Made by a program: the position numbers and the translations under genes. The notes under the pieces are model-generated. The model did no database searches, had not been told where the DNA came from, and saw only the letters and a list, made by a program, of their open reading frames with translations. 64,000 nt of DNA, taken from assembly GCA_017502135.1 (NCBI GenBank), contig JAFVVP010000001.1:544-64543 (forward strand). Reading direction: 5' to 3'. The DNA comes from Clostridia bacterium (lineage in GTDB: Bacteria > Bacillota > Clostridia > Oscillospirales > CAG-272). Every line of letters starts with the position of its first letter. The first letter of the stretch is position 1. This document shows positions 8,011 to 24,280 of this stretch, piece after piece.

Positions 8011-8039
8011 TTGACATCGTGCCGATAATGTGCTATAAT
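8011..8039 (+). promoter_or_regulatory. Consensus sigma-70-type promoter for the fic / R-M array
   Basis: TTGACA (8011-8016), 17-nt spacer, TATAAT (8034-8039), about 75 nt upstream of the fic ATG. Confidence 0.6.
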
Positions 8040-8114: not shown

Positions 8115-8987
8115 ATGGCAATGAGAACACATGAAGCAGCTGAAAAATGGGGCATCACCGCGCGACGAGTACGTGTGCTTTGCGTAAATGGTCAGATCGA
8201 CGGTGCATGGCGCGAGGGCAAGATCTGGTACATCCCCGACAACGCTCCCAAGCCTGCTGACGGGCGAATCCGCAGTAAAGAAACGCTGATTGTGCAGATT
8301 GAAAGAAAAAAGGCGGAGCTGGATACTCGCCGTCCGCTGACCGAAGGCGAAGTCGCCCGGTTCAACGAAGATTTTATGATCGAGTACACCTACAACTCCA
8401 ACGCAATTGAGGGGAACACGCTCACTCTTCGCGAAACAGATATGGTGCTGAAGGGCTTGACCATTGATCAGAAACCGCTGAAGGATCACATGGAAGCGGT
8501 CGGCCACAAGGATGCCTTCTACTTTATCTGCGACCTCGTGAAGGATAATATTCCCCTCTCCGAGTCGGTCATCAAGCAGATTCACACGCTTGTGTTGGCG
8601 GATAAGCCGATGGATCGCGGTGTTTATCGCCGTGTCCCCGTTCGCATCATGGGCGCGAAGAACGAGCCTGTGCAGCCGTATATGATCGAGCCGAGGATGT
8701 ATGAGCTGATGCAGAAATACGCGGCGGACGAGCGAAATATCGTAGAGAAGCTCGCGGATTTGCACGTCGAATTTGAATCGATCCATCCGTTCATCGACGG
8801 CAACGGCAGAACCGGACGGCTGATAGTGAATCTGGAACTGATGAAAGCCGGCTATCCGCCGATTGATGTTAAGTTTACTGATCGGATGCGGTATTATGAG
8901 GCATTTGAGGATCGCGATGAAATGGCGCGGTTGTTTGGGGAGTATCTCAGTAAACGGTTGGATCAGTATTTGGAAGTACTTAAGTAA
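8115..8987 (+). CDS. fic: Fic-family protein with an N-terminal HTH (excisionase/MerR-like) domain
   Basis: Fic motif HPFIDGNGRTGRL. Upstream inhibitory-type motif SNAIEGN. N-terminal WGITARRVRVLCVNGQIDGA HTH. Confidence 0.9.
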   Translation: MAMRTHEAAEKWGITARRVRVLCVNGQIDGAWREGKIWYIPDNAPKPADGRIRSKETLIVQIERKKAELDTRRPLTEGEVARFNEDFMIEYTYNSNAIEGNTLTLRETDMVLKGLTIDQKPLKDHMEAVGHKDAFYFICDLVKDNIPLSESVIKQIHTLVLADKPMDRGVYRRVPVRIMGAKNEPVQPYMIEPRMYELMQKYAADERNIVEKLADLHVEFESIHPFIDGNGRTGRLIVNLELMKAGYPPIDVKFTDRMRYYEAFEDRDEMARLFGEYLSKRLDQYLEVLK

Positions 8988-9000
8988 AGGGGATAAAAAT

Positions 9001-9801
9001 ATGAAATTTGATTTTTCAACACCAATGACAATATATGAATTGTTAGCAATAATATTGGCAGCATTAGCACTTGTAATTCCGTTTTTTAAGTGGATATACG
9101 ATAAGTATATTCGAAAGCTTAAATTTAATTTTCTTGCTTCTGGAAAGTTATCAGTGTTTTTCAATAAAAGCGGAGCCTATGTTTCTCTTGGCGGTGTTTA
9201 TGAAGCAAAGAACAAAACTGCTGCAGTAAAAAACATATCCGCAAAAATTAAAAGGACTTCTGACAAGGCGATATTATCGTTGAGATGGTCTACCTTCCAA
9301 TCTCCGGTGTTTAGACAAATTGCAGGAAATTACGAAACATCATTTGAAACAGCTCATCCTTTCAAAGTTGAGGCAGACACATTAACTCCTGTATTTGTCG
9401 AATTTGAAAATGCAGAACAAAATTCTGGCGAAATAATAAATTCGATTATTAATCCCTTACATAAAAAAGCTAATAGTGATATGAATACTCTAAACATCTC
9501 TGTGCAGGCATATGACCCATCCTACAGAGCGAGCACGGAGTATAAAAACGCCTTAATTGCAATGAATGACATATTCTTTTGGAAGCCGGGGGACTATACC
9601 ATCAAATTGATTACAGAGTATAACAATTCCACATTTTCATGTTATGGTGAATTCAGTTTGACGAAAGAAGACTCAGAAAAATTGCGCGCTAATATTGAAG
9701 AATTATTTGTTGAGCCTCTTGCTAATAAAATCAACTGCAGAATAACCGTTAACACGGTATCAAAAGAGTTTAAACTTGATAATCAATCACGCAAGGAATA
9801 A
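9001..9801 (+). CDS. Hypothetical membrane-anchored protein (one N-terminal TM helix, beta-rich C-terminal domain)
   Basis: ATG at 9001 follows AAAGGGGA. LLAIILAALALVIPFF is a TM segment. AT-rich. Lies 13 nt after the fic stop and 3 nt before the next ATG. Confidence 0.7.
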   Translation: MKFDFSTPMTIYELLAIILAALALVIPFFKWIYDKYIRKLKFNFLASGKLSVFFNKSGAYVSLGGVYEAKNKTAAVKNISAKIKRTSDKAILSLRWSTFQSPVFRQIAGNYETSFETAHPFKVEADTLTPVFVEFENAEQNSGEIINSIINPLHKKANSDMNTLNISVQAYDPSYRASTEYKNALIAMNDIFFWKPGDYTIKLITEYNNSTFSCYGEFSLTKEDSEKLRANIEELFVEPLANKINCRITVNTVSKEFKLDNQSRKE

Positions 9802-9804
9802 TAT

Positions 9805-10716
9805 ATGTCAGATATATGGTCATTATTAAAAAACGCGAACGATGCATTAAAACCGAATTTTCTATGTGTCCCACCATATCGTTGCGTTAATGGTGAATAC
9901 CTCAATGAGATTAACGAATCCATTTCCGCTGGAAAAGATGCATCGTTGAAAGTTCGTGGCAGCATTAACCTTCCGTGGCAAAGAGCCTATCAGTTTGAAT
10001 ATCGCTATAAGAAATGCAAAATCTTTGAACCATTTATGCCTGCAATAGAGTATGCAACTTACGATGCAATGGAAGGAAATTGGATATGCGCATATTTAAG
10101 TTTTCTTGCTGTTGTGGAAGCAGTATTGCGAAAATGGGCAGATGAACAATCCCTTACATTCGAAAGAATGAAAGGAATTGCCGCGGCATTAGTGAAGCAT
10201 ATGCAGTCACAAAAATATTTTCCCGATGAACGCATTGCTATAACAGATGGATATATCGATTATCTTCAATATATCCTTTGCGAAGTTCTTTACGAAGGGT
10301 TCGACGGATACAAACTCAAGTCCTTTTCAGATATATTCAATCGAAATCTATCCTTGCACAAACTCGAAGGTGTCATGGATATTTCCGAAGGGCTGTCCAA
10401 TGTAACCCGTATCATGTTAGTGTTAGATATCATCGCAGAATTATACTTCATGCAAAATCCGGAAGAATATTGGACAACCACTTTTCACGCAGATCCTGAA
10501 AATAATCCCGATTTTCAATTGCGTTGGAAATTATACATAAAACATTCCATGTTGGCTATCGGTCCAAACGACAGACTAATTATTCAAAATGCGCTGTTAA
10601 ATTATGTTGATGATGATATCAAAAAGGCGACAACTGCAAAATTAGATTTGGAAATCAAATTATTATCCGGCAAATTTTTCACAGGAGAAAACCACTATGG
10701 CAAAGAAAAAAGTTGA
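9805..10716 (+). CDS. Hypothetical alpha-helical protein with an RNxxxH (HEPN-type Rx4H) motif
   Basis: 303-aa ORF with RNLSLH at residues 180-185 (nt 10342-10359). Overlaps the hsdM start by 20 nt. No other family recognised. Confidence 0.7.
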   Translation: MSDIWSLLKNANDALKPNFLCVPPYRCVNGEYLNEINESISAGKDASLKVRGSINLPWQRAYQFEYRYKKCKIFEPFMPAIEYATYDAMEGNWICAYLSFLAVVEAVLRKWADEQSLTFERMKGIAAALVKHMQSQKYFPDERIAITDGYIDYLQYILCEVLYEGFDGYKLKSFSDIFNRNLSLHKLEGVMDISEGLSNVTRIMLVLDIIAELYFMQNPEEYWTTTFHADPENNPDFQLRWKLYIKHSMLAIGPNDRLIIQNALLNYVDDDIKKATTAKLDLEIKLLSGKFFTGENHYGKEKS

Positions 10717-12301
10717 AGAAAAAATAAATCTTGATTCGATACTGTTCAAGTGTCGTGATATACTGCGTGCGGCGCGCAATTCGGGCTCGTTTTTTGAAAA
10801 GCGCGATATGATGCTGACGCTCGTGTTCTTGCGCTTCATTGGCGAGAAATTTGAGGACGGCGTTGAAAAGCTCCGTCAGGATCTTATTGCCCAGGGACTC
10901 GATCCCGATGATGAGGAAATCTTCGCGGCGTTCTTTGATGACGCTACCTTCACGGACGGTACGTATAACCTTCCCGTAGAAGCTCGCTGGTCTACCATCA
11001 TCAATACCCCTGCGCCCGGACTCAACGTTGCTCTTGACACTGCCCTTCACAGCATTGCTACGAGCAGTAAACAGCTCAAAGGATGCTTTGTCGAGGGTAC
11101 TTTCACTACGCGAAATCTCGCCGCTAACGACATCAAAAAGATCGTAGACGAAGTCAATAAGATCAGCCACAAGGCGTTTGGCGAGGAAAAAGACCTCATC
11201 GGACGTGTATACGAATACTTCCTCAAGGAATTTGCCGTAAACGCGACCAAAGAGGAAGGTGAGTTCTATACCCCTCACGATGCCGTGCAGTTGATCGCCG
11301 CTATGATCGAGCCTTTTGACGGTACACTCTATGACCCTTGTTGCGGTTCGGGAGGTATGTTCATTCAGAGTACCGACCTTATCCGTGAAAAGCGCGGTGA
11401 TATCAGCCGTATCAATATTTACGGTCAGGAGAAAGAGCCTGCAACCTATCGCCTTGCAAAAATGAACCTCGCTTTGCGCGGTATCAGCCACAATCTGGGT
11501 GACGAGGCTGACTCTACCTTTACCCACGACCTTCACAAAGGTCTCTACTTCGATTACATCATGGCGAACCCGCCCTTTAACCTCAAGGGATGGTACGATG
11601 AAAATCTCAAAAATGACTCCCGTTGGGCAGATTACGTAACCCCTCCCGAAAGCAACGCCAACTATGCCTGGATCCTTCATATGCTCTCTCACTTGAAAGC
11701 AACCAAGGGTGTAGCAGGCTTCCTTCTTGCCAACGGTGCGCTCGGTGACAGCGATACTTTGGAAATTCGTAAAAAGCTCATTCAGAATGACAAGGTAGAA
11801 GCTATTATCATTCTCCCTCGTGAGCTCTTTATTACCACCGATATCAGCGTTACACTTTGGATTTTGAATCAGAACAAGAAGGGCGGCGAATACCACGGCA
11901 GAACTCTGCGCAGCCGCGAGAATGAAATTCTCTTTATGGATCTTCGTACTTGGACAGAAAACCCCGTTAAGAACGAGGGTAAAAAGAAAATATTCTTGAG
12001 CGATGAACAGATTCAGAGAGCCGCAGACATCTACCATACTTGGCAAAACGAAGGAACGGATGGAACAAATTATGCTGTGCCCGAACTGTATCGTAGTGTA
12101 AGCAAGGAGATTATTGAAGGACAGGGCTGGAGCCTTGTTCCCAGTAAGTATATTGAGTTTATCGACCACGACTTGGATATTGATTTCAATGCTGAAATGA
12201 GCCGTATTCAGGCAGAAATGCGCGATGTTCTCGCACAGGAAAAGCAGTCTCAAAAGATGCTTGAGGATGCTTTTAGGGGGATTGGATATGGCATTAACTA
12301 A
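10697..12301 (+). CDS. hsdM: Type I restriction-modification system, DNA methyltransferase subunit M
   Basis: HsdM N-terminal domain, AdoMet motif DPCCGSGGM, and catalytic NPPF (IMANPPFNLKGW). Confidence 0.95.
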   Translation: MAKKKVEEKINLDSILFKCRDILRAARNSGSFFEKRDMMLTLVFLRFIGEKFEDGVEKLRQDLIAQGLDPDDEEIFAAFFDDATFTDGTYNLPVEARWSTIINTPAPGLNVALDTALHSIATSSKQLKGCFVEGTFTTRNLAANDIKKIVDEVNKISHKAFGEEKDLIGRVYEYFLKEFAVNATKEEGEFYTPHDAVQLIAAMIEPFDGTLYDPCCGSGGMFIQSTDLIREKRGDISRINIYGQEKEPATYRLAKMNLALRGISHNLGDEADSTFTHDLHKGLYFDYIMANPPFNLKGWYDENLKNDSRWADYVTPPESNANYAWILHMLSHLKATKGVAGFLLANGALGDSDTLEIRKKLIQNDKVEAIIILPRELFITTDISVTLWILNQNKKGGEYHGRTLRSRENEILFMDLRTWTENPVKNEGKKKIFLSDEQIQRAADIYHTWQNEGTDGTNYAVPELYRSVSKEIIEGQGWSLVPSKYIEFIDHDLDIDFNAEMSRIQAEMRDVLAQEKQSQKMLEDAFRGIGYGIN

Positions 12302-13385
12302 ATATAAACTTGGCGAGTTAATCAAACAACGCAGAGAGAAATACGACGGTTTAGAAGAGCTTCCTATAAAAGGTGTTGCTCGAGAAGGATTTATCTCACC
12401 TAAGCAGGACGGAGCGGATCTTTCTATCTATAACGTATATTATTTGAATGATTTTGTATTTAATCCCGCAAGAATGGAATTGAATTCTATCGCCCTAAAT
12501 ACGTTTTGGGATAAAGCCATTTGTTCTTCTCTGTATGAAATCTTTTATATCACTCGTACAGATTTGCTGCTTCCTGAATATCTGAATCTATATATAAAAA
12601 GAGATGAATTTGCACGCAAGTGCTGGTTTGAGGCTGTTGGCTCAGCTCGTAACTATTTCAGGGTAGCAGATTTATCAGAATTTGACATCGAACTTCCTGA
12701 CCTTCCCACTCAGCAGAAATATGTTGATATCTACAAAGCAATGGTTGCCAATCAGCAGAGCTACGAGCGTGGATTGAAAGATTTGAAGCTTGTTTGTGAC
12801 GCATACATCGAGAATATAAGTGCAGATGAATATAAATCGATTGGATTATTTATTAAGAGGAATCAAAATAAAAATCAAGAAAAAGTCTTTAACAAAACAC
12901 AGGTTAAAGGATTTAACAATGAAGGTGAGTTTATCAAGCCTATGCGACTGTTTTCAGGAGATATCTCGACATTCAAAGTAATTAAGAAAAACGATTTTGT
13001 TTACAATTCTCGAATAAATAGTACCATAAAAAAATTAAGCGTAGCTCTAAACGAAGGTGATGATTTAATTGTAAGTCCGGCTTATGAATCCTTTTACATA
13101 TGTGATACCGATAAATTAGATCCGTACTACCTATATATGTTGTTGCAAAGAGAACAATTTGCGAAGAAAGTTTTATTCCACTCATTTGGTAGTTCTACGT
13201 TAGTGTTTGGATTTGATAATTTGGGAGAGGTGGAGATTCCGATACCAGATATTCAAATTCAAAGAGCTATTGCAAACATATACAGAACTTATAAAGAACG
13301 AAAAGCTATCAACGAAAAGTTGAAAGCTCAAATTAAAGACATTTGCCCGATACTGATTCAGGGATCATTGGAGGAAGGAAAATAA
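12288..13385 (+). CDS. hsdS: Type I restriction-modification system, specificity subunit S (two TRDs)
   Basis: ATG at 12288 after AGGGGG, overlapping the hsdM end by 14 nt. Two target-recognition halves are separated by conserved helical spacers (QQKYVDIYKAM.. / IQRAIANIYRTY..). Confidence 0.85.
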   Translation: MALTKYKLGELIKQRREKYDGLEELPIKGVAREGFISPKQDGADLSIYNVYYLNDFVFNPARMELNSIALNTFWDKAICSSLYEIFYITRTDLLLPEYLNLYIKRDEFARKCWFEAVGSARNYFRVADLSEFDIELPDLPTQQKYVDIYKAMVANQQSYERGLKDLKLVCDAYIENISADEYKSIGLFIKRNQNKNQEKVFNKTQVKGFNNEGEFIKPMRLFSGDISTFKVIKKNDFVYNSRINSTIKKLSVALNEGDDLIVSPAYESFYICDTDKLDPYYLYMLLQREQFAKKVLFHSFGSSTLVFGFDNLGEVEIPIPDIQIQRAIANIYRTYKERKAINEKLKAQIKDICPILIQGSLEEGK

Positions 13386-13387
13386 TA

Positions 13388-14596
13388 GTGGCATTTAGAT
13401 TAAACATCGATAATATTCTTGAAACCAATATACGAGAATTAAATTCACATGAAATCACAAGTTTTGAATACGAGGATTTGTATAGCGATATAAGCAACGA
13501 GAAGTTGAAAACCGTTTTCACGTGGCTTCATGGCGGATACATGAGTCTTTTCAGAACAATGAACGAAAGACTTCCCACTAATGGATATGGTGCGCACTTT
13601 TGGGCAGAGCCGAGTAGGGAGTTGATTTTTATTATTGAACTTACCATATCTCTCCAAGGCTCTTTGAAAAAGACCGAGTGGGCTTTTTCGATAGACGAAT
13701 ATTACGATGATTTAATTAGGCAATGCCGAGAGTTTTTATCCAATAGTGGCGGTAGCACCCTGCCACCTAATATGAATAAAATAACACTTTGCTACGTAGA
13801 ACCTATTTTCAATCTTACAGAATCAATGGTTGTTAGCGGTGAGAGTCATTCTTTTGTTTCGAATTTAAAACCTATTGGAAATGGCTCTTACGCCAATGTG
13901 TTCCGATATACTGATGAATTTTACCACAGAGATTTCGTGCTTAAAAGAGCGAAAAACGATTTGAACGAAAAAGAGCTTCAACGGTTCAAACGAGAATTTG
14001 AGGAAATGCAATCTCTTCATTCCCCATACATAGTGGAAGTGTACTCGTACAACGAGGCAAGGCACGAATATATAATGGAATTGATGGATTACACTTTGGA
14101 AAATTACATCAAAATTCATAATCAATCCATGACCGTACAGGAACGCAGAAATATAATAATGCAGCTTCTACGTGCTTACGGATATTTATATTCCAAAAAT
14201 ATTTATCATCGCGATATCAGTCCCCAAAATGTGCTTATAAAGCAATATGACGATACCTTGGTGGTCAAACTCTCCGATTTTGGTCTTGTCAAAATAGTGG
14301 ATAGTGATTTAACATCGGAAAACACAGAGATAAAAGGTTCTCTAAATGATCCAGCATTAAAAACAGAGGGATTTGAAAACTATGGTTTGATACACGAACT
14401 GTATGCCATAACGTTACTATTCACATACGTGATGACTGGAAAGACAAACTGGGCAAAAATTAACGATTCTATTATCAAGCCTTTTATGAATAAAGGCACA
14501 AACCCCGATAAATCAAAAAGATTTCAAACGTTGGAGGAACTTGGCGATGCCGTTAAAGCATGTTTGATATCGCTTGAAAGACTACAGCAGTTTTGA
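13388..14596 (+). CDS. Hanks-type Ser/Thr protein kinase with an unknown ~170-aa N-terminal domain, embedded between hsdS and hsdR
   Basis: GTG at 13388 follows GGAGGAAGG (alternative ATG at 13343). Kinase motifs present: G-loop IGNGSYANVF, VLKRAK, YHRDISPQNVL (HRD at 14207-14215) and DFG (14276-14284). Confidence 0.85.
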   Translation: MAFRLNIDNILETNIRELNSHEITSFEYEDLYSDISNEKLKTVFTWLHGGYMSLFRTMNERLPTNGYGAHFWAEPSRELIFIIELTISLQGSLKKTEWAFSIDEYYDDLIRQCREFLSNSGGSTLPPNMNKITLCYVEPIFNLTESMVVSGESHSFVSNLKPIGNGSYANVFRYTDEFYHRDFVLKRAKNDLNEKELQRFKREFEEMQSLHSPYIVEVYSYNEARHEYIMELMDYTLENYIKIHNQSMTVQERRNIIMQLLRAYGYLYSKNIYHRDISPQNVLIKQYDDTLVVKLSDFGLVKIVDSDLTSENTEIKGSLNDPALKTEGFENYGLIHELYAITLLFTYVMTGKTNWAKINDSIIKPFMNKGTNPDKSKRFQTLEELGDAVKACLISLERLQQF

Positions 14597-14610
14597 AACT
14601 GGAGGTAAAA

Positions 14611-17600
14611 ATGGCAAACTTACAAAACTACAACGGACGCTATTGCGAATCTCAATTTGAATATGCGTTCCTCTCATTTTTAGAGGCAGAGGGATGGCAT
14701 TATCTGCACGGCAATAGCATTCCGCGTGAAAATAAAACTGCAGTTTTGTATGCGGATGATATGGAGCAGTTTTTGAGCAAGACCAATACGGATCTGACTG
14801 CCGACGAAATCCATCAGATCATGGACAAGGTGCGCCTTGTCGGTGCGGAGAGTGAGTTCTCCACACTTCATACGGTGTACGGATGGATGGTTGACGGCGT
14901 GCAGTTTGTTCCTCAAAGTGGACTTGCCCGTATGGTTGCGCTCATTGACTTTGAGCATCCCGAAAACAATATCTTCCGTGCAGTAAACCAGTTTACCGTC
15001 GAGTATATCAACAACGGGCAGAAGGAGAACCGCCGTCCCGATATTCTTCTGTATGTCAACGGTATGCCTCTGTGTATTATTGAACTCAAGAACCCTGCCG
15101 ACGCCAACGCAACGATTTTTGATGCCTACGAGCAGATCACCATTCGTTATTGGCGCGATATCCCTCATCTTCTGCATTACTGCCCCTTGGCATGTATTTC
15201 CGATGGTGTGAAAACTCGCCTCGGTACTGTCCACACACCCTACGAGCATTTCTATGCTTGGCGTCGTGTCAACGATGGGGACAAGGTATCCACGCTTCCT
15301 TTTGATGAACTCGAAACCATGATTAAGGGCGTATATGCCCCGGCAAGATTCCTTGAGATCTTCCGTGACTATATTTATTTTCAAGACCGCGAATACGACA
15401 GCGATGAGAAAGAAATCGTCTGCCGTTATCCGCAGTTCTTTGCTGCACGTTTGCTCAAGCAAAGTATCGTAAAATCGGTTATCGAAAAGAGCGGAAAAGG
15501 CGGTACATATTTCGGTGCGACCGGATGTGGTAAAACATACACCATGGCGTTCCTTGCTCGTCAGCTCGCGTTGCGTTGTACCGATGTTCCCGAAATCGGT
15601 TCGCCTACGATTGTAATGATCGTTGACCGTGAGGAACTGCAAAAGCAGGGTGCAAAGCTGTTCACCAAGAGTAAGGAATTCTTAAACCTCGGTGAAGTAA
15701 GCATCGTTCCCACCCGTAAAAAGCTCCGTGAGGAACTCGGCGCACGTGAAAGCGGCGGATTCTATATCTGTACCATTCAGAAGTTCTGCGACCGCGAAGA
15801 TGATAAAATCGGTCTGATCAATGACCGTGCCAATATTATTTGCTTCTCGGATGAAGCCCACAGAACACAGCTTGAGCATGCAAAGACGCTCAAGTTCAGC
15901 AAGGACACCGACGAAAATATGAAAGCTATGGTGTCCAAGCCTTATGCAAAGGTGCTCAAAGAGGCACTGCCCAACGCTACGTTCGTTGGATTTACCGGTA
16001 CGCCCATTTCCGAAACCTATCAGACCTTCGGTGACGAAATTGACCGCTATACCATGGATCAGGCTGTGGCAGATGGATTGACCGTATCTATCAAATACCA
16101 TCCCCGTATTGCCAAAGTCCTGCTCGATCAGGAAAAGGCAAAGGAAATCGAGGCATACTATAAGAAATGCTTTGATGATGGTGCTACCGAAGAAGACGTT
16201 GAAGCAAGTAAGAAAGCAATGAGCTCAATGGAAGTTATCCTTGGCGAGCCTTCTCGTTTGGAACGTTTAGCAGTAGATATCCATGATCACTATGTATCTG
16301 CTTGCGCCAAAGATCCCGACAGAGTGCAAAAAGCAATGGTCGTGTGCTCTTCGAGACCGATTGCATACGCACTTTTAAAGAAATTCCAAGAGAAATATCC
16401 CGAATGGTTCGTGGAAAAAAAGACTCCCGACGGAGTGAAAGTATCCGACGAGGAATTGAACAAGCTGAAGCCCATGCCATTTATGGCAATGGTTGCGAGT
16501 GTGGGCAAAAACGATGAGCCGGATATGTATAACTATCTCGGCGGTGTTAAAAACGGTTGTCGTTCCGAGGATCTTGATGCCGCATTTAAGCAAGACAATT
16601 CCAACTTCCATATCGTAATCGTTGTGGATATGTGGATCACCGGCTTTGACGTTCCTTCTCTGACCTATATGTATAACGATAAGCCTTTGAAGAAGCATCT
16701 GTTGATTCAGACCATAAGCCGTGTCAACAGAAAGTATCCTGGCAAGGATTACGGTTTCATCGTTGACTATATCGGTATTCGCGATAATATGCGTGAGGCT
16801 ATAAAGCAGTACGGTGGCGGCACCTCCATTGCTCCTTCTGCCGATGACGTGGAGCAGGCTACCGAGGTGTTTAGAGAACACATGGACGTTCTCAAGGATC
16901 TGTTTAAGGGGTATGACCTTACGCCATTCCTTGATCCCGAAGGAGATCCCGCTCTGCGTTATAGACTCTTAGCGAAAGCAGCCGAGTACGTATTTATCTC
17001 TACACAGGAATTGAACACGCAGAATAACGACGGCAAGAGTGTTCAGAAGGTATCCTTTAAGACATATTTTCTGAAGACTGTTAAGAGAATGCGTACCGCA
17101 TATGATATTTGTCAGCCCTCGGGTGAACTCGGAGAGGAAGAATCTGCCCTTGCACAGTGCTTTATGGCAATCGCAGGATTTGTCCGTAAGATGAGCGGCA
17201 CAAGCGAGGTGGATGCTGATACTATGAATCGCCACGTTGCGAAGATGGTTGAGGAAGCATTGAAGTATAACGAGGTTGAAAGCGTATTGGAAGACGGCGA
17301 GCAGGAAGATATTTTCAGCCCCGAATATTTCGAGAAGTTGTCTGACGTTAAAATGCCTGCCTCCAAGCTTGAAATCCTTGTAAAAATGCTTCGCAAGCAG
17401 ATCAAGGAATACAGCAAGACAAATCAGATGGCAGCGAAGAAATTCCAAGAGATGCTTGAAGAAACTATTAAGCTGTATCACGAAAGAAGAAAGCACCTCA
17501 CCGCAGAAGAAGCAGGAGAGGCGCAGGAGCACGCTACCGAGGATATTATCAGAAACGCTACCGAACAGGCACTTCGTATTTTGAAGGATATGAATGCCGA

Positions 17601-17940
17601 TCGTGAGAGCTTCCGAAAGATAGGTCTCACGTTTGAGGAAAAGGCATTCTACGATATTTTGATGGCGCTCCGAGATGAATACAACTTTGAGTACGGCACG
17701 GACAAAAAGGTGGATGGTATCGTTATTAACGATAAATGCAAATCCCTCGCTAAAAAGATCAAAGAGATTATCGATACCAAATCTTCCTTTGCAGATTGGC
17801 TCAACAATCAGATCGTCCGTGACCAGCTCAAATTTGATATCAAGGTTTGCTTGGTAAAGAATGGTTATCCTCCGCAGTATAGCCCCGAGGTGTTCCGTAA
17901 AGTTATGGAGCAGGTCGAGAATTTCGAGGAAAATAATTGA
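14611..17940 (+). CDS. hsdR: Type I restriction enzyme, R subunit (helicase/endonuclease)
   Basis: ATG at 14611 after GGAGG. HsdR_N nuclease region, Walker A GATGCGKTYTM, DEAH box FSDEAHRTQ, and a long C-terminal helical domain. Confidence 0.95.
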   Translation: MANLQNYNGRYCESQFEYAFLSFLEAEGWHYLHGNSIPRENKTAVLYADDMEQFLSKTNTDLTADEIHQIMDKVRLVGAESEFSTLHTVYGWMVDGVQFVPQSGLARMVALIDFEHPENNIFRAVNQFTVEYINNGQKENRRPDILLYVNGMPLCIIELKNPADANATIFDAYEQITIRYWRDIPHLLHYCPLACISDGVKTRLGTVHTPYEHFYAWRRVNDGDKVSTLPFDELETMIKGVYAPARFLEIFRDYIYFQDREYDSDEKEIVCRYPQFFAARLLKQSIVKSVIEKSGKGGTYFGATGCGKTYTMAFLARQLALRCTDVPEIGSPTIVMIVDREELQKQGAKLFTKSKEFLNLGEVSIVPTRKKLREELGARESGGFYICTIQKFCDREDDKIGLINDRANIICFSDEAHRTQLEHAKTLKFSKDTDENMKAMVSKPYAKVLKEALPNATFVGFTGTPISETYQTFGDEIDRYTMDQAVADGLTVSIKYHPRIAKVLLDQEKAKEIEAYYKKCFDDGATEEDVEASKKAMSSMEVILGEPSRLERLAVDIHDHYVSACAKDPDRVQKAMVVCSSRPIAYALLKKFQEKYPEWFVEKKTPDGVKVSDEELNKLKPMPFMAMVASVGKNDEPDMYNYLGGVKNGCRSEDLDAAFKQDNSNFHIVIVVDMWITGFDVPSLTYMYNDKPLKKHLLIQTISRVNRKYPGKDYGFIVDYIGIRDNMREAIKQYGGGTSIAPSADDVEQATEVFREHMDVLKDLFKGYDLTPFLDPEGDPALRYRLLAKAAEYVFISTQELNTQNNDGKSVQKVSFKTYFLKTVKRMRTAYDICQPSGELGEEESALAQCFMAIAGFVRKMSGTSEVDADTMNRHVAKMVEEALKYNEVESVLEDGEQEDIFSPEYFEKLSDVKMPASKLEILVKMLRKQIKEYSKTNQMAAKKFQEMLEETIKLYHERRKHLTAEEAGEAQEHATEDIIRNATEQALRILKDMNADRESFRKIGLTFEEKAFYDILMALRDEYNFEYGTDKKVDGIVINDKCKSLAKKIKEIIDTKSSFADWLNNQIVRDQLKFDIKVCLVKNGYPPQYSPEVFRKVMEQVENFEENN

Positions 17941-17951
17941 GAGGAGAAGCT

Positions 17952-19046
17952 ATGACAGAAAAAGGAGTCATTTATATTCTTACAAACCCGTCTTTCCCTC
18001 AATATGTAAAGATCGGCTATGCTGACAATGTGGAATCGCGGTTGAAACAACTGAATAATAGCGAGTGCATTCCTTTTGCTTTCCGTATTTATGCTACATA
18101 CGAAGTTGAGGAAAGACTGACGGATCTGAAGCTCCATGCGCTGATTGACCAGCTCAATCCGAATCTGCGTTCTATCGACGAAGTGGACGGCAAAAAGCGT
18201 GTTCGTGAGTTCTATGCGATGTCGAAGGAACAGGCGTATTCTATCCTTGAAACGATTGCTATTCTCGGCGGGCGCAAGGACAGGCTTCATCTGTATGAGC
18301 CGACCACGGAGGAGAAAAAGAGCGAGAATTTGGCACAGGAGATTGAGGAAGAACACATTGAGCGTCTTTCTCCGTTTGCCTTCTCCAAGTGCAAAATCCC
18401 TGTTGGTGCAACGATTACGTTTATTCATCAGGGCAACGCTAACTCTGGCGCACAATGTACTGTAGTGGATGATAAAACGGTTGACTATCAGGGGCGCAGA
18501 TTATCCCTTTCCGCCCTCGCAACCGAGCTTACAGGAAGCAAATGGGGCGTTGCCGGACCTCGATATTTCAAGTATAACGGCGTATGGCTTAACGAGCTCC
18601 GTGCCAAGGAAGAAGGTTGGAAGGTAACCTCGCGTCTTGATGATGTGTGGATTATTCCTTGCAACCCGAAATATTACGATATAGTCGCTGCGTTTGACCA
18701 CCTCGATGTAATCGAATGGAGTCAATCTACCAACACAACCGTGGGAGATACGGTTTACATATACGTTGGAGAGAAATACAAGTCGATTATGTTCAAATGC
18801 GAGGTTGTTGGTGCGGATCTGTATGGCAATCGTTCCACCGATGACCATCCGTATTATAAGGAACTGGAAAAAGATCCCGACGCTCGATATATGAAGTTGA
18901 AATTGGTCGAGAAATACCCCACCGGTCAGTATCCGCTGAAGGAACTTAAAGAAAATGGACTCACAAGTGTTCAGGGGCGAAGCAAGGCAACCGTGCAGCT
19001 GATGAAGTATTTGGAAAAACAACATTGGAGAAGTGATCTTTATTGA
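17952..19046 (+). CDS. GIY-YIG (T5orf172-type) nuclease domain fused to a C-terminal PUA-like (EVE/ASCH-type) domain
   Basis: N-terminus GVIYILTNPSFPQYVKIGYADNVESRLKQLN. C-terminus WIIPCNPKYYDIV...VGDTVYIYVG. ATG lies 11 nt after the hsdR stop, with a GAGGAG RBS. Confidence 0.75.
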   Translation: MTEKGVIYILTNPSFPQYVKIGYADNVESRLKQLNNSECIPFAFRIYATYEVEERLTDLKLHALIDQLNPNLRSIDEVDGKKRVREFYAMSKEQAYSILETIAILGGRKDRLHLYEPTTEEKKSENLAQEIEEEHIERLSPFAFSKCKIPVGATITFIHQGNANSGAQCTVVDDKTVDYQGRRLSLSALATELTGSKWGVAGPRYFKYNGVWLNELRAKEEGWKVTSRLDDVWIIPCNPKYYDIVAAFDHLDVIEWSQSTNTTVGDTVYIYVGEKYKSIMFKCEVVGADLYGNRSTDDHPYYKELEKDPDARYMKLKLVEKYPTGQYPLKELKENGLTSVQGRSKATVQLMKYLEKQHWRSDLY

Positions 19047-19076: not shown

Positions 19077-19937
19077 ATGATTCGCATAATAGAAAAATTT
19101 GAAGATAAGACCCCATCAAACATTGTTTTTGAAACCATAACGCTTTCTTCCGGTGATTCAATAAAGGTGTATACAATTGAAACAGTGCATGATCTAACCC
19201 AATTCATTGGTTATGGAAAGTATATGAATTGTCAAAATCATAATGTTTATTTGCGTGGGCAAACTTCATTGTATAATGGAAAACTAATACCTTCACTTTA
19301 TCGGGAGAAAACAAGTGTCAAAAGCATAACAGAAAATTATAATTTCAGGATGAACAAATTCAAAAGCAGCGTAAAATCATTTCACCAATACGAAAGAAAC
19401 GTTTTAGAACCACTTCTTCAGCATTATGGAATAAAAACGCCTTATATAGATTTGGTTGATAATGTATGGGTCGCGCTTTGGTTTGCATTACATCAAGCGA
19501 AATCTACAATAGTTAATTCACATGAATACATATATTACCATGATAGCAAAGAAAAATATGCATATATATTATTAATAGCTAGTGATGCTAGAGAAGTAAC
19601 AGAATATAAGGGCGTATATAAAGGTGATAAAACAACACTAGTGGATTTAAGAAATGCAACTCCTTCATACTTTTTAAGACCACATGCTCAACATGCATTT
19701 ATGCTTAGAAAGACAACTCCTTTTCCTGAAGACTATAGTGATTTGATTGTAGGAATAGCAAAAATACCTACGGCAATCGGATTCAAGTGGTTGGGAACAA
19801 ATGATTTTTTAACAGTGAATAGCCTTTTCCCGGCCATATATTTTGATTCTGGCTATGAAGTTTTAATGAAAAATTTTCCTGAAGAAAATGCAGGGATAGT
19901 AAAACAATATGGCTCAATACAAGTAATCACTGATTAG
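19077..19937 (+). CDS. FRG-domain protein
   Basis: YLRGQTSLYNGKLIPSLYR and LLQHYGIKTPYIDLVDNVWVALWFA match FRG hallmarks. AT-rich. Confidence 0.7.
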   Translation: MIRIIEKFEDKTPSNIVFETITLSSGDSIKVYTIETVHDLTQFIGYGKYMNCQNHNVYLRGQTSLYNGKLIPSLYREKTSVKSITENYNFRMNKFKSSVKSFHQYERNVLEPLLQHYGIKTPYIDLVDNVWVALWFALHQAKSTIVNSHEYIYYHDSKEKYAYILLIASDAREVTEYKGVYKGDKTTLVDLRNATPSYFLRPHAQHAFMLRKTTPFPEDYSDLIVGIAKIPTAIGFKWLGTNDFLTVNSLFPAIYFDSGYEVLMKNFPEENAGIVKQYGSIQVITD

Positions 19938-21801: not shown

Positions 21802-22782
21802 ATGACAGCAGAAATGAAACTCAAAAGAATGTCCGAAATTGAATTGCAGGAGGTGGAGTGGCTCTGGTATCCGTATATCCCGTTCGGGAAGATCACGATC
21901 ATACAGGGTGATCCCGGAGAAGGCAAGACCACACTCGGACTGCGGCTTGCGGCGGCATGCTCCAACGGCAGCGGATTCCCAGGCATGGAAGAACGTGAAC
22001 CGATCAGCGTGATCTATCAAACAGCAGAGGATGGACTCGGAGACACGGTCAAGCCGCGTCTGATAGAAGCGGAAGCGAATGAAAACCTCATCTTCAATAT
22101 CAGCGAGGATACCGATGTGCTGACGCTGAAAGACGAGCGAATCGCGGAGGCGATACGGACAACCGGTGCGAAGCTAATGATTTTCGATCCCATCCAGGGT
22201 TACGTCGGTGAGGATACCGACATCAACCGCGCAAACGAAATACGAACGGTGATGCGAGGCATTGCAAACGTGGCGGAGAAGTCCGGATGTGCGATTGTCT
22301 TCGTCGGACATCTCAACAAGATGAAGGGCACGAACAGCGCATACCGCGGACTCGGCACAATTGATTTCCGTGCATCGGCACGCAGTGTTTTGCTTGTCGG
22401 CAGACTTCGCAAGTTCCCGAATGTGCGCGTGATCGTGCATGATAAATCTTCTCTTGCTCCCGAAGGAAAATCGATGGCGTTCAATCTAGGAAACGATGAG
22501 GGCTTCCATTGGATCGAAGGTTACGACAGCATCACCGCCGACGAACTTCTCTGCGGCGGAACGAACGAAACGAAGACCGACGCGGCGGAAGATCTGATTC
22601 GGGATATGCTTTCTTCAGGCGATTACGTTCCGTCCGAGAGGATCTACGAAAGAGCGAAGGAGAAAGACATCTCACCTCGTACCGTCACCGAAGCAAAAGC
22701 GAAGATCAAAGGGATCACCACAAAGAAGATCGGGAAGGCATGGCACTGGGCTATTTTAGAGAATGCCGACTGCACGGAATGA
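21802..22782 (+). CDS. RecA-fold AAA_25 / RepA-like ATPase of mobile elements
   Basis: Walker A GDPGEGKTT, Walker B KLMIFDP, and the typical N-terminal WLWYPYIPFGKITIIQG. Confidence 0.8.
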   Translation: MTAEMKLKRMSEIELQEVEWLWYPYIPFGKITIIQGDPGEGKTTLGLRLAAACSNGSGFPGMEEREPISVIYQTAEDGLGDTVKPRLIEAEANENLIFNISEDTDVLTLKDERIAEAIRTTGAKLMIFDPIQGYVGEDTDINRANEIRTVMRGIANVAEKSGCAIVFVGHLNKMKGTNSAYRGLGTIDFRASARSVLLVGRLRKFPNVRVIVHDKSSLAPEGKSMAFNLGNDEGFHWIEGYDSITADELLCGGTNETKTDAAEDLIRDMLSSGDYVPSERIYERAKEKDISPRTVTEAKAKIKGITTKKIGKAWHWAILENADCTE

Positions 22783-22860
22783 AGAAGGTAACAATGCAGT
22801 GTGTCTCTGCCGTGAAACGAAGATACCGTATAGTGTCTCTTGCATTGTTGCGTTATTCCT

Positions 22861-22882
22861 TACGGGACGGTTCCGTCCCGTA
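22861..22882. promoter_or_regulatory. Candidate oriT hairpin (TACGGGACGG-tt-CCGTCCCGTA)
   Basis: Perfect 10-bp inverted repeat in the 200-nt gap upstream of mobC-mobA. A second 9-bp inverted repeat, AACAATGCA...TGCATTGTT, lies at about 22790-22848. Confidence 0.4.
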
Positions 22883-22981
22883 TTGGCAAGTTTCGCCTTT
22901 GACAGTCATGCACTCCTTCGGGAGTACTGCAGCCAAGGCAAATGGGCTAAGCCCAAACCCCTACTTAGAAAGAGAGGACAG

Positions 22982-23302
22982 ATGAAAGAAAAACAAAATC
23001 GCACCGAGAAGGTGACCATCCGACTCACGCCGGACGAGCTGGAACGACTGCGCGAGCTCTCTTATGGGAGCTATCGGTTAATGGCGGACTACTGCCGCGA
23101 CTGTATTTTCGGACGTGAGATCTCCGTAATCCCTGGCTTTGATGAAGCGGCAAATCAGCTTCGGCGCATCGGTACGAATCTCAATCAGCTCACAAGGCTC
23201 GCGAACCTGCGTGAAATTTCGGTAGTCGATCTCACGGAAACCAAGGCGGAGATTGCAAAAATCTATGGTATTCTCCGTGCCGTATCGAAGGGAGGACGAT
23301 GA
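22982..23302 (+). CDS. mobC: MobC-family relaxosome accessory protein
   Basis: ATG at 22982 after AGAGAGGA. VTIRLTPDELERLRELS ... NQLRRIGTNLNQLTRLAN. Confidence 0.85.
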   Translation: MKEKQNRTEKVTIRLTPDELERLRELSYGSYRLMADYCRDCIFGREISVIPGFDEAANQLRRIGTNLNQLTRLANLREISVVDLTETKAEIAKIYGILRAVSKGGR

Positions 23303-24280
23303 ATGGCAATCGTAAAAATGATACCGTCGTCGAGTCCGCTCGGCAATATTTTCAACTATGTTCAAAACAAAGAGAAGACAGAGCCACATCTCATCAGCGG
23401 TAAGGACTGCATGACGGAGAGCGCTCAGGCAGAGTTTGAGATCGTGAAGTCCCGTTTCAACAAGACCGGAGGGCGGAATTACTATCACGTCATCCAATCC
23501 TTTGCACCCGAAGATGACCTCACCCCGGAGGAAGCGCACGACATCGGCATGGAGCTTGCAAGCTTTTTTAACAGTTTTCAGGTGCTCGTTGTCACGCATA
23601 CCGACCGCGGACATCTGCACAATCACCTCGTTGTAAACTCCGTCTCCCACGCGGACGGAAAGAAGCTGCACACCTCGCAGGACGATCTGATGCGGATGAA
23701 ATCTTACTCCAACAAGCTTTGCGCACGGCGTGGACTGTCCACCACCGAAGAAAAAAGCAGTTGGTATCGTCGTGGTGAATGGAAGACAGAACTCATGCGC
23801 GTGGCGCTGCGAGCAATGTTTCTGTCTGAAACGCGGGAGGACTTTATCGAATTTATGGAGAAGCACGGCTATGGTGTGAAGTGGAATCCCGATTATAAAT
23901 ATATAACCTTCTCCACGCCCGAGGGCAAGCGCGTGCGTGACAACAAGCTCTTCGATGAGCGGCTACTTAAAGGCAACCTTGAACTATACTTCGCCATGGG
24001 CGGATGCGGCTCGGTGCTGGGACCGGACTATTGGAACTATCAAACGCCGGCGCACAATGAAAATGCCAAGGAAACGGTCACAACCGGACTGCTGAATCTC
24101 ATTGCTGACCTGCTCTGCCAGGAAGAAGACGGTGGCTATACACCGCGACCACTCACCGAGATGGACAAATGGGAGAAAGAACGGCTCGAAAAGATTCTCG
24201 GCAAGCGGATTTCAAATGAAGCGTACTTATACTACTGCACGAAGGAAGACTACGAACAGTCGGCGGGACTGTCCATGTGA
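23303..24280 (+). CDS. mobA: MobA/VirD2-family relaxase (possibly C-terminally truncated)
   Basis: Relaxase motifs HVIQSFAPED and HTDRGHLHNHLVVNSV. The start abuts the mobC stop. The ORF ends exactly at an abrupt switch to AT-rich DNA. Confidence 0.85.
   Translation: MAIVKMIPSSSPLGNIFNYVQNKEKTEPHLISGKDCMTESAQAEFEIVKSRFNKTGGRNYYHVIQSFAPEDDLTPEEAHDIGMELASFFNSFQVLVVTHTDRGHLHNHLVVNSVSHADGKKLHTSQDDLMRMKSYSNKLCARRGLSTTEEKSSWYRRGEWKTELMRVALRAMFLSETREDFIEFMEKHGYGVKWNPDYKYITFSTPEGKRVRDNKLFDERLLKGNLELYFAMGGCGSVLGPDYWNYQTPAHNENAKETVTTGLLNLIADLLCQEEDGGYTPRPLTEMDKWEKERLEKILGKRISNEAYLYYCTKEDYEQSAGLSM

Follow-up and report, generated by a model that had tools for sequence, protein, structure and literature searches.

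The EcoPrrI locus is a type IC restriction-modification (R-M) system with an embedded anticodon nuclease, PrrC, which is physically masked by the R-M complex; the Campylobacter rlo genes are a further R-M-embedded example. Stk2 of Staphylococcus epidermidis, said to have been described by Depardieu and colleagues in 2016, is reportedly an anti-phage Ser/Thr kinase. PrrC is found almost only within type I loci, and genes that sit inside type I R-M, BREX, and DISARM loci have been catalogued (Payne, Hughes, Fineran & Jackson 2024, bioRxiv 10.1101/2024.01.29.577857), as has been reported for TgvAB in V. cholerae as embedded defence genes (PMC11411939). PD-T4-6 is a Ser/Thr kinase system of E. coli (Vassallo et al. 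2022, PMC9519451), and the PD-T4-6 models also call a conserved PASTA-type kinase in every S. thermophilus strain examined (PMC11514479). PglW in BREX type 2 is a kinase with a regulatory role in an R-M-like system (PMC12839542), and CapK, which has a STAS partner, belongs to the GHKL kinases of the anti-sigma-factor type (PMC13373217). Fusions of the AbiJ N-terminal domains NTD1 and NTD3 to S/T/Y protein kinases were listed by Anantharaman, Makarova, Burroughs, Koonin & Aravind (2013, Table 2 and text, PMC3710099), who proposed that the NTD is a sensor or antitoxin and the C-terminal domain a toxin; NTD2 and NTD5 are about 100 aa long in the same description.

Here we describe a gene for a Hanks-type Ser/Thr kinase in a type I R-M operon of a Clostridia bacterium, found in a stretch of 64,000 nucleotides that was analysed as a whole (the window). 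We propose, with somewhat better than even confidence, that the gene encodes an autonomous defence protein of the abortive-infection type, combining sensor and effector in a single polypeptide and inserted as a precise cassette into a slot of variable cargo.

A cassette in the hsdS/hsdR junction

The kinase gene belongs to a nine-gene array, of which the relevant features are as follows.

8011-8039, + strand: predicted sigma-70-type consensus promoter heading the array, TTGACA-17-TATAAT with TG, 12/12 matches, the only perfect promoter match for the array
8115-8987, + strand: Fic-domain gene (Fic E 6.4e-20), upstream cargo, PADLOC candidate PDC-S04 (E 8.7e-40) / SoFic-like
8863/8988-9801, + strand: first low-GC ORF between the Fic gene and hsdM, start ambiguous, GC 0.34
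9805-10716, + strand: second low-GC ORF between the Fic gene and hsdM, GC 0.37
10697-12301, + strand: hsdM, type I methyltransferase (N6_Mtase E 1e-85; HsdM_N; PADLOC MTase_I E 1.6e-105)
12225-13385, + strand: hsdS, type I specificity subunit (Methylase_S; PADLOC Specificity_I E 3.4e-80)
13386-14600, + strand: cargo cassette, the stretch missing where relatives in this R-M family have an empty slot
13388-14596, + strand: kinase-fusion ORF, 402 aa, start GTG 13388, stop TGA 14594-14596
14601-14605, + strand: GGAGG, ribosome-binding site of hsdR, bordering the cassette on its 3' side (sequence and junction comparison)
14611-17940, + strand: hsdR, type I restriction subunit (HSDR_N, SWI2_SNF2, T1R_D3-like, T1RH-like_C; REase_I E 3.3e-244)
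17937-19046, + strand: T5orf172 / DUF2924 gene, downstream cargo, PADLOC candidate PDC-S57 (E 7.1e-97)
19077-19937, + strand: FRG-domain gene, downstream cargo, PADLOC candidate PDC-S15, GC 0.32

The two low-GC ORFs upstream of hsdM matched no significant family in Pfam, NCBIfam, and PADLOC scans. No terminator-like site was found on the + strand between 8011 and about 20242, in agreement with the original prediction that neither a terminator nor a promoter-sized gap flanks the kinase gene. Immediately downstream of the island, the window carries a relaxase gene and an AAA_25 gene.

The junctions of the kinase gene proved to be as first read: its GTG at 13388 follows the hsdS stop codon (TAA, 13383-13385) after 2 nt, and the ATG of hsdR at 14611 begins 14 nt past its own stop. 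The ribosome-binding site of the kinase-fusion ORF is GGAGGAAGG at 13370-13378, within the 3' end of hsdS. The GTG start is supported by the identical 402-aa product called on four independent metagenome contigs; the codon at 13343, which had been offered as an alternative ATG, is TTG. The lower GC content ascribed to the kinase gene and hsdS is also borne out (0.368 and 0.353, respectively, versus 0.472 for hsdM and 0.462 for hsdR). In the junction comparison, homology between the window and five sister loci (L095, L103, L098, L100, and L102) ends at about 13380-13386 and restarts at about 14600-14611. The kinase gene is a discrete 1.2-kb low-GC cassette that fits precisely into the space from the hsdS stop to the hsdR start, borrows a ribosome-binding site embedded in hsdS, and brings a new one for hsdR.

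Sister R-M loci, whose HsdR proteins are 88-97% identical to that of the window, were compared for the content of this slot.

L095 and L103: empty
L098: a 369-aa protein of unrecognised family
L100 and L101: Drt4 and a 415-aa protein
L102: PDC-S06 / AAA_13
L011 and L042: PDC-S35 TIR and kinase

The sister loci also match the PADLOC candidates PDC-S35, PDC-S06, and PDC-S49. In this gut-Clostridia R-M family, what lies at the hsdS/hsdR junction varies: it is a cargo slot and natural site of cassette exchange, empty in some relatives and in others holding Drt4, a PrrC-like ATPase, TIR proteins, kinases, or unrecognised genes; the unrecognised cargo (the 369-aa and 415-aa proteins, and positions 8988-10716 of the window) is therefore a good lead to new defence genes. 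The kinase had been said to occupy the position of PrrC. This is correct as far as the location between hsdS and hsdR is concerned, but the analogy stops at position: the slot holds unrelated cargo or none, so that occupancy of the PrrC slot is by itself no evidence for PrrC-like coupling, a point on which caution is advisable.

Domain structure of the kinase-fusion protein

The features of the 402-aa protein are given below.

13388-13861, + strand: N-terminal helical domain, aa 1-158, most likely AbiJ-NTD1-like, presumed sensor (phmmer relatives, fusions, AF2)
13595-13624, + strand: conserved N-domain motif HFWAxxSREL (homologue alignment)
13733-13765, + strand: conserved N-domain motif FLxxSGGSxIP (homologue alignment)
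13862-14596, + strand: Hanks-type Ser/Thr kinase domain, aa 159-402 (Pfam, catalytic residues, AF2 model, Foldseek)
13874-13903, + strand: G-loop IGNGSYANVF, aa 163-172, including G164/G166
13943-13945, + strand: VAIK-type Lys K186, in VLKRAK (motif reading)
+ strand: alpha-C Glu E203, in KREFEEM (motif reading)
14207-14215, + strand: catalytic HRD, aa 274-276
14276-14284, + strand: DFG, aa 297-299
14312-14314, + strand: conserved activation-loop T309 (homologue alignment)

Pfam Pkinase (PF00069) matches aa 159-362 with an E value of 1.4e-29 (103.8 bits versus a cutoff of 31.7). Among 40 homologues of 36-97% identity, K186, R275, D276, N281, and D297 are invariant, and E203 and T309 are at least 90% conserved down to 36% identity. 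The score and the invariant catalytic residues confirm the kinase signature that had been read in complete order, with HRD at 14207-14215 and DFG at 14276-14284. The tripeptide HRD also turns up a second time, incidentally, at aa 180-182. The AF2 model of the kinase domain (pLDDT 88.9) has the bilobal kinase fold, with Foldseek matches in the PDB to CaMKII, WNK, ULK1, PknB, and Stk1 (E about 1e-11, probability 1.0). The protein has a complete Hanks-type kinase that is predicted to be catalytically competent. In NCBIfam it scores below the equivalog thresholds of MADS6 (75.9 versus a cutoff of 460) and PglW (43.4 versus 990). A regulator kinase of the CapK/CapS type in immune operons was considered and rejected, since CapK is a GHKL (anti-sigma-factor-type) kinase with a STAS partner and the present protein is a Hanks kinase without a partner.

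The N-domain (aa 1-158) gave no match to Pfam, NCBIfam, and PADLOC models. A sequence-profile search of the PDB found nothing significant (best E 0.012, FliS and others), nor did Foldseek against the PDB (best E 2.1) or the viral BFVD (best E 1.3). Its AF2 model (pLDDT 89.6) shows four long helices (7-19, 38-59, 73-93, and 104-119) and short strands, a predicted fold with no solved structural relative in the databases searched. An exhaustive phmmer search with the N-domain yielded 301 representative clusters, and a kinase is present in at least 70 of the 150 N-domain relatives listed. The full-length N-domain proteins without kinase comprise seven with Abi_C, the AbiJ HEPN domain (PF14355; P0137, P0138, P0164, P0171, P0173, P0187, and P0235), three with TIR (CAP12-type TIR and TIR_2), and one with R2K ATP-grasp. 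The PADLOC AbiJ model covers only the C-terminal part of the Abi_C-carrying proteins, and PDC-S35 matches both CAP12-TIR proteins. One protein of the HEPN/TIR type follows an MmeI-type enzyme; the gene context of such proteins was visible on two short contigs. Conversely, kinase cores 74-87% identical to that of the window are found behind AbiJ_NTD3 or behind a third N-domain (L065). Such swapping of sensors and effectors around the kinase and the N-domain is typical of defence genes.

The N-domain is a widespread helical module of conflict systems, most likely AbiJ-NTD1. This assignment to NTD1, whose published prototype is Bcep1808_2091 (gi 134296193) and whose listed kinase example is gi 47459341, was made by elimination and from the architectures in the published description. 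Pfam AbiJ_NTD3 does not match the N-domain at E values up to 0.01, whereas the same model does detect P0069; remote homology to AbiJ_NTD3 was rejected after hhalign against the NTD3 alignment gave a probability of 0.1%. For NTD4 and NTD5, the elimination goes by the lack of any Pfam match. The first 170 or so residues had been said to match no family. That is accurate for Pfam, NCBIfam, and PADLOC, but the region can be placed as a sensor-type conflict-system module, most likely AbiJ-NTD1, by its fusions to Abi_C and TIR. Of the checks put forward with the original prediction, the profile scans found no family and structure prediction gave the helical model.

The residues N59, A73, S76, L117, G122, and P126 of the N-domain are invariant in the alignment, as are the polar residues N59, S76, R77, G122, and S123. 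The invariance of the latter five is unusual for a domain recognising fast-evolving phage proteins, and the N-domain could therefore have a small-molecule ligand or an enzymatic role. It is conceivable, if unlikely, that the N-domain is a conserved ligand-binding module reading a common signal that arises whenever restriction, of whatever type, has failed or been inhibited. The basis for this idea is the invariance of N59, S76, R77, G122, S123, and P126 across the kinase, HEPN, and TIR fusions, together with the lack of a structural relative; it would explain why members follow immediately after R-M genes of the type I, II, IIL, ISP, and III-like classes and after BREX genes. If true, the N-domain kinase, HEPN, and TIR proteins would be a general back-up alarm for R-M systems.

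The domain data also bear on the proposal that the kinase tunes restriction or modification through phosphorylation of HsdR, HsdM, HsdS, or a host factor, for example in restriction alleviation after DNA damage or on entering a new host. Its place in the middle of the hsd operon, with predicted co-transcription from the promoter at 8011 and no internal terminator, would suit such a regulator, and kinases do regulate R-M-like systems, as PglW does in BREX type 2. Close relatives of the R-M system lack the kinase and have an empty slot, relatives of the kinase occur with no R-M system nearby, the PglW and MADS6 scores are far below threshold, and the exchange of N-domains (NTD1-like, NTD3, and a third type) and their sharing with HEPN and TIR toxins fit the logic of an effector rather than that of a dedicated regulator. 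Both the general proposal and the alleviation example are highly improbable.

Distribution of the kinase and its probable role

More than 2,300 homologues were found in Clostridia, Bacilli, Campylobacterota, Verrucomicrobia, Elusimicrobia, and Melainabacteria. Among 80 species-level loci (L005-L084), nine are flanked by HsdS and HsdR, two have HsdR upstream, and the rest are located elsewhere; at least 22 of the 80 are R-M-adjacent, a lower bound obtained from pooled neighbour scans and ten large neighbours scanned singly. In this neighbourhood census, of the kind suggested with the original prediction, homologues also occur in defence islands. Further homologues come after AlwI, Type ISP, MmeI, Eco57I-like, and Res-like genes, BREX BrxL, and RADAR RdrB; P0066 lies between Gabija-like/AbiEii genes and Lamassu. 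A 57%-identical homologue (P0095, listed in 271 contig-index blocks) is alone on a conjugative element, and full-length homologues are carried by 62 Campylobacter conjugative plasmids, 19 Lactococcus dairy plasmids, and one Bacillus phage. The kinase family and the R-M family are each found without the other, so that neither needs the other at the family level. The literature searched holds no paper that tests the N-domain-kinase family, and two papers on lactococcal plasmid defence (PMC11381338 and PMC12418389) make no reference to the kinase of p158A-type plasmids.

A PrrC-like guard arrangement, in which binding to HsdMSR keeps the kinase latent until a phage anti-restriction protein (of the Stp, Ocr, or ArdA type) unleashes it to kill the cell by phosphorylation, has to be weighed against this distribution. 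The kinase gene is in the prrC position and translationally tight with hsdS and hsdR. In one locus with a 97%-identical HsdR, an ABC-ATPase of the AAA_13 family that weakly matches PrrC (E 1.4e-8) fills the slot, which hence does host PrrC-like genes. Moreover, all sampled full-length homologues of at least 71% identity, and only this closest clade, are in the hsdS/hsdR gap (L042, L005, L006, L007, and the four contigs with the identical protein), and for this reason a clade-specific functional coupling of the kinase to this R-M family may exist. Yet most members of the kinase family come without type I R-M, being carried by conjugative elements or plasmids, lying within defence islands, or accompanying other R-M types, in contrast to the nearly exclusive type I embedding of PrrC; the slot in relatives holds unrelated cargo or is empty; the N-domain is also present in HEPN and TIR proteins, one of them after an MmeI-type enzyme; and the kinase protein has no sequence or domain relation to PrrC. 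The PrrC-like guard is accordingly improbable, and the original choice between an R-M-guarded effector and a phospho-regulator of restriction is disfavoured by kinase homologues without type I R-M and by the same R-M family without the kinase.

The plasmid and phage homologues raise the further prospect that the kinase benefits a mobile element as a toxin-like or exclusion factor (addiction, plasmid entry exclusion, or interference with host defence), its place in the R-M operon being incidental hitch-hiking. Many homologues are on conjugative plasmids and ICE-like elements, adjoining relaxase and ArdA-type anti-restriction polyprotein genes, and the relaxase and AAA_25 gene are directly downstream of the island in the window. 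Such elements typically carry defence genes anyway, however; in the window and at many loci the gene has defence or R-M genes of the same strand as its immediate neighbours; and among the 408 neighbour proteins (312 clusters) no conserved antitoxin-like partner was found beside the kinase gene. We therefore judge this prospect distinctly unlikely.

A defence-effector role, as the original prediction had it, is the best reading because the N-domain is common to HEPN and TIR architectures of abortive infection and because homologues are found in defence islands and next to R-M and BREX genes. As an autonomous sensor and effector, the protein would be held inactive by its N-domain in the uninfected cell; an infection cue sensed by the N-domain would free the kinase, which might then autophosphorylate, the candidate site being the conserved T309 of its activation loop, and phosphorylate host and/or phage proteins, so that growth or phage development stops, as has been reported for Stk2. 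Presumably transcribed together with the R-M genes from the 8011 promoter, the kinase could act as a second layer once restriction has been evaded, a role that would require no physical coupling to HsdMSR. The large N-domain-kinase family, which current defence-finder models miss at the N-domain, is a ready candidate for kinase-based abortive infection.

Comparison with known systems

Like Stk2, the window protein is a single-gene Hanks-type kinase with a presumed phage-triggered abortive-infection function. In PADLOC, the match to Stk2 (E 6.9e-32) is confined to the kinase core, model positions 128-353 of 500, short of full length, and the flanking regions of Stk2 are unrelated to the window N-domain. 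The likeness to PD-T4-6 is that of kinase defence by a single gene: many PD-T4-6 models match aa 160-357, the best covering positions 15-213 of 311, again the kinase core only, and the match is unspecific because the models also call conserved kinases of the PASTA, or housekeeping, type.

Like prrC, the window gene adjoins hsdS and hsdR within a type I hsd operon and has a plausible second-line suicide function. The proteins differ, PrrC being an AAA_13 ABC-ATPase with a HEPN tRNA nuclease and the window protein a helical NTD with a Hanks kinase, in which Pfam and PADLOC found no match to AAA_13, HEPN, or PrrC; and PrrC is almost only R-M-embedded, whereas the kinase family is mostly elsewhere and its slot is interchangeable. 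The catalogued embedded genes are, like the present one, unrelated defence genes within multigene R-M operons, and the window neighbours match the candidates PDC-S04, PDC-S57, and PDC-S15. Unlike these candidates, the window N-domain matches no PADLOC v2.0.0 model, and the family as such is therefore absent from them. The claim that no type I R-M-embedded kinase system had been described holds narrowly, but AbiJ-NTD-kinase fusions were published in 2013 (PMC3710099) and R-M embedding has been catalogued.

The AbiJ-NTD fusions of that publication differ from the present analysis in being a table entry, without family analysis, type I slot, or experiment. The resemblance extends to a mostly helical N-domain of about 140-160 aa, to its position before AbiJ-type HEPN, TIR / nucleoside-deoxyribosyltransferase-like, and kinase domains, and to frequent R-M association with the logic of an NTD sensor or antitoxin and a C-terminal toxin; in sister loci the same kinase stands behind a bona fide Pfam AbiJ_NTD3.

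Kinase gene and operon setting

The kinase ORF lies on the plus strand between hsdS and hsdR, where the original prediction had placed it, with gaps of 2 nt and 14 nt: its GTG start (13388) stands 2 nt after the hsdS stop, is preceded by GGAGGAAGG at 13370-13378, and its TGA stop precedes the hsdR ATG (14611) by 14 nt. The start at 13388 is supported by the identical 402-aa product called on four independent metagenome contigs, on which HsdS and/or HsdR flank the gene wherever the contig is long enough; at 13343, proposed as an alternative ATG start, the codon reads TTG. The predicted AT-richness was confirmed (GC content 0.368 for the kinase gene and 0.353 for hsdS versus 0.472 for hsdM and 0.462 for hsdR).

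Features of the R-M island in the window
8115-8987, Fic gene, PDC-S04 / SoFic-like, cargo
8863-10716, two low-GC ORFs (0.34 and 0.37), co-directional, between Fic and hsdM
hsdM, plus strand, type I neighbour, N6_Mtase E 1e-85
hsdS, plus strand, stop TAA 13383-13385, type I neighbour, PADLOC Specificity_I E 3.4e-80
13388-14596, plus strand, kinase gene, 402 aa, stop TGA 14594-14596
hsdR, plus strand, start 14611, type I neighbour, REase_I E 3.3e-244
17937-19046, T5orf172 + DUF2924 gene, PDC-S57, cargo
19077-19937, FRG-domain protein, PDC-S15, cargo

These profile matches show the three Hsd neighbours to be genuine type I genes. A sigma-70-type promoter with a perfect match is found at 8011-8039, with no plus-strand terminator-like site between it and about 20242, so that a single transcription unit plausibly runs through all nine co-directional genes, Fic to FRG. 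The R-M operon is thus loaded before hsdM (Fic), between hsdS and hsdR (kinase), and after hsdR (T5orf172 and FRG cargo). The two low-GC ORFs (the first about 270-312 aa with an uncertain start, the second 303 aa) have no Pfam, NCBIfam or PADLOC match and no homologue in 84 compared loci; their position makes them candidates for embedded defence genes. Just downstream of the island are an AAA_25 (RepA/KaiC-like) ATPase and a MobA/VirD2-type relaxase (21802-24280), so the island borders on a mobilisable element. The genes upstream are ordinary metabolic ones (Ldh_2, a CotH/5'-nucleotidase protein and a transglutaminase-like protein).

Kinase and N-terminal domains

Every kinase motif read from the ORF in the original prediction was recovered in place, and Pfam Pkinase matches aa 159-362 with 103.8 bits (cutoff 31.7). 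A word-indexed search returned 2,333 homologues, among them a closely knit set of proteins of about 400 aa. When 40 full-length homologues (36-97% identical) were aligned, K186, R275, D276, N281 and D297 were invariant, and G164, G166, E203 and the activation-loop T309 were at least 90% conserved. The AlphaFold2 kinase domain has a mean pLDDT of 88.9 with low confidence in the activation loop only, and Foldseek against the PDB returned protein kinases only (CaMKII, WNK, ULK1, PknB/Stk1; E about 1e-11, probability 1.0). By alignment and model, the domain is intact, under selection and predicted to be a working Hanks-type kinase rather than a pseudokinase, and the 402-aa protein is assigned to the Hanks kinase superfamily, every testable defining feature of which is present.

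The N-terminal domain (aa 1-158) is matched by no model in Pfam, NCBIfam or PADLOC. Searched exhaustively with phmmer, 1.84 billion representative proteins yielded 301 clusters that have it, and about half of the 150 members listed carry the same kinase. [quoted passage not shown] The same kinase core (74-87% identical) follows a bona fide Pfam AbiJ_NTD3 in proteins P0068 and P0069 and loci L011, L023 and L057, and in Sporomusa malonica (L065 9560-10756, core 58% identical) it follows a third N-domain of about 160 aa with no match to the window's N-domain, AbiJ_NTD3 or Pfam. The modelled N-domain is mostly helical (pLDDT 89.6); no relative was found among solved structures by sequence profile or fold (best Foldseek E 2.1), or among predicted viral structures. 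Kinship with AbiJ_NTD3 was rejected (hhalign probability 0.1%). AbiJ-NTD1 has been described as a mostly helical domain of about 140 aa, fused to HEPN domains (AbiJ and others), HKD and REase nucleases, a nucleoside deoxyribosyltransferase-like domain and "STYKinase" (Anantharaman et al. 2013, PMC3710099, Table 2 and text). The window's N-domain agrees with this description in size, helicity, and HEPN and kinase fusions, and matches AbiJ-NTD1, the label being assigned by architecture and elimination, not alignment. The domain called unassignable at first is so with respect to family models and solved structures, but is placeable as AbiJ-NTD1-like through its HEPN, TIR and ATP-grasp fusions.

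Across all effector contexts (kinase, HEPN, TIR), N59, A73, S76, L117, G122 and P126 are invariant and R77 and S123 at least 90% conserved; these residues and H70, encoded within 13562-13765, are invariant or nearly so whichever effector follows. This constancy points tentatively to a defined site for a ligand or an interaction. A presumed phage-protein sensor would not usually show such invariance.

The hsdS/hsdR slot and the setting of homologues

DNA homology to the compared R-M relatives stops at 13380-13386 and restarts at 14600-14611; the kinase gene is therefore a precise 1.2-kb cassette. GGAGGAAGG lies within the conserved hsdS 3' end (encoding ...GSLEEG) and in empty-slot loci (e.g. 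L095 6960-7030) is the hsdR ribosome-binding site, while in the window the kinase uses it and hsdR gets a new GGAGG (14601-14605) from the cassette, so that cargo exchange keeps translational coupling. HsdR homologues 88-98% identical to the window's are very numerous, and slot contents were compared in five that were looked up.

Slot contents in relatives of the window's HsdR and in kinase-bearing sister loci
L095/L096 and L103/L104, empty, hsdS overlapping hsdR
L098/L099, 369-aa protein (L098 5818-6927), no Pfam or PADLOC match
L100/L101, Drt4 reverse transcriptase, then 415-aa protein (L100 5718-6965), the latter with no Pfam or PADLOC match
L102 5491-7880, PDC-S06 / AAA_13 ABC-ATPase, weak PrrC match, HsdR 97% identical
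L011 and L042 (sister loci), PDC-S35 (CAP12-TIR) ahead of kinase
L083 (sister locus), PDC-S49 behind kinase

The 369-aa and 415-aa proteins, from loci with HsdR 88-90% identical, may be new defence genes, or else accessory factors of Drt4. The ABC-ATPase of L102 is broken into two ORFs (287 aa and 514 aa), suggestive of a frameshift or assembly error.

The neighbourhood census proposed with the original prediction took one genome per species (459 relatives), with counts over the best 80 loci (L005-L084), from many phyla. When genes were identified by their similarity to Hsd proteins of the window, the order hsdM-hsdS-(x)-kinase-(x)-hsdR was found in L005, L006, L007, L011, L023, L042, L057 and L083, and also in L001, a contig with the identical kinase protein; HsdR is upstream of the kinase in L048 and L059. 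When large upstream neighbours were scanned one by one (L070 and L071 being placed by clustering), further associations appeared.

Genes ahead of the kinase, directly and on the same strand for the rows from AlwI to RdrB
AlwI type II system, L012, L070, L071
Type ISP enzyme, L030
MmeI enzyme, L033
Eco57I-like enzymes, L062, L084
Res-like helicases, L024, L031, L040
RADAR RdrB-like deaminase, L020
BREX BrxL (kinase after it), L049, L053

Pooled Pfam scans of the two upstream neighbours (116 proteins) gave Methylase_S 10, ResIII 7, N6_Mtase 6, Eco57I 5, D12 methylase 4, AlwI 3, N6_N4 methylase 3, BrxL 2, PglZ 2, MmeI 2 and Type ISP 1; those of the two downstream neighbours (96 proteins) gave HsdR 8 and Mrr 4, plus recombinases, integrases and transposases. 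In at least 22 of the 80 loci the kinase adjoins R-M or BREX genes; many contigs are short, which makes this a lower bound. Only about one kinase in eight lies in a type I locus. Neighbours are otherwise very diverse (312 clusters among 408 proteins). P0181, which joins the window's N-domain to a CAP12-type TIR (L106 3-1714), begins 9 nt downstream of a type IIL R-M enzyme of the MmeI family; thus non-kinase relatives of the N-domain can also be R-M-adjacent.

Other kinase homologues stand by themselves, as standard cargo on mobile elements or in defence islands. The most widespread homologue, P0095 (57% identical, listed in 271 contig-index blocks; L085-L090), lies in an ICE-like element found in gut Firmicutes, flanked by relaxase/MobC/Bro-N genes and by an ArdA-ArdC anti-restriction polyprotein, and P0066 (60% identical) has Gabija-like and AbiEii genes on one side and a Lamassu system on the other. 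Full-length homologues are present in 62 records of Campylobacter jejuni/coli conjugative plasmids (about 45-50 kb), in 19 records of Lactococcus dairy plasmids (e.g. p158A, WP_015081795.1, adjoining a recombinase gene with mobC a few kb away) and in one Bacillus phage. On the ICE-like, Campylobacter and Lactococcus elements their annotation says no more than "protein kinase family protein" or hypothetical.

At the level of families the kinase and the R-M system can be separated, and the slot takes varied cargo or none; the PrrC position is therefore no evidence for R-M masking or a restriction-regulator role. Every sampled full-length homologue at least 71% identical is embedded in type I R-M, and specific coupling of this clade to the window's R-M family therefore keeps a low probability.

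Proposed function and comparison with known systems

The kinase is likely a defence effector, as originally suggested, given the N-domain shared with HEPN and TIR proteins and the defence contexts; its guarding by the R-M complex is unsupported, and so is phospho-regulation of that complex, in view of the separable families and promiscuous slot. The N-domain would autoinhibit the kinase until a trigger activates it; autophosphorylation at T309 might ensue and, by analogy with Stk2, broad phosphorylation could follow. The gene fits the logic put forward in 2013 for single-protein abortive infection, and also the "guilt-by-embedding" picture (Payne et al. 2024, bioRxiv 10.1101/2024.01.29.577857): its N-domain is common to HEPN/TIR suicide effectors, N-domains are swapped on one kinase core, and homologues occur in mobile-element and defence-island settings with strong R-M/BREX adjacency. 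The family represents a large, plasmid-borne candidate defence group whose N-domain is an orphan sensor-like fold with invariant polar residues, and the well-defined cassette slot leads toward more unknown defence genes.

In the literature that could be searched, no paper tests this kinase family. The protein differs from PrrC in domain composition and distribution, matches the core of the Stk2 model alone, and scores far below the NCBIfam cutoffs for MAD6 and PglW, and is a member of none of the four. For PD-T4-6, the matches are confined to the generic kinase core, and its models are known also to call conserved cellular kinases (PMC11514479). Among the candidates of Payne et al. are PDC-S04, PDC-S57 and PDC-S15, which match the other cargo genes in the kinase's own operon. 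The kinase protein is an uncharacterised NTD-effector Abi-type protein in an R-M locus, and the kind of system is not new.
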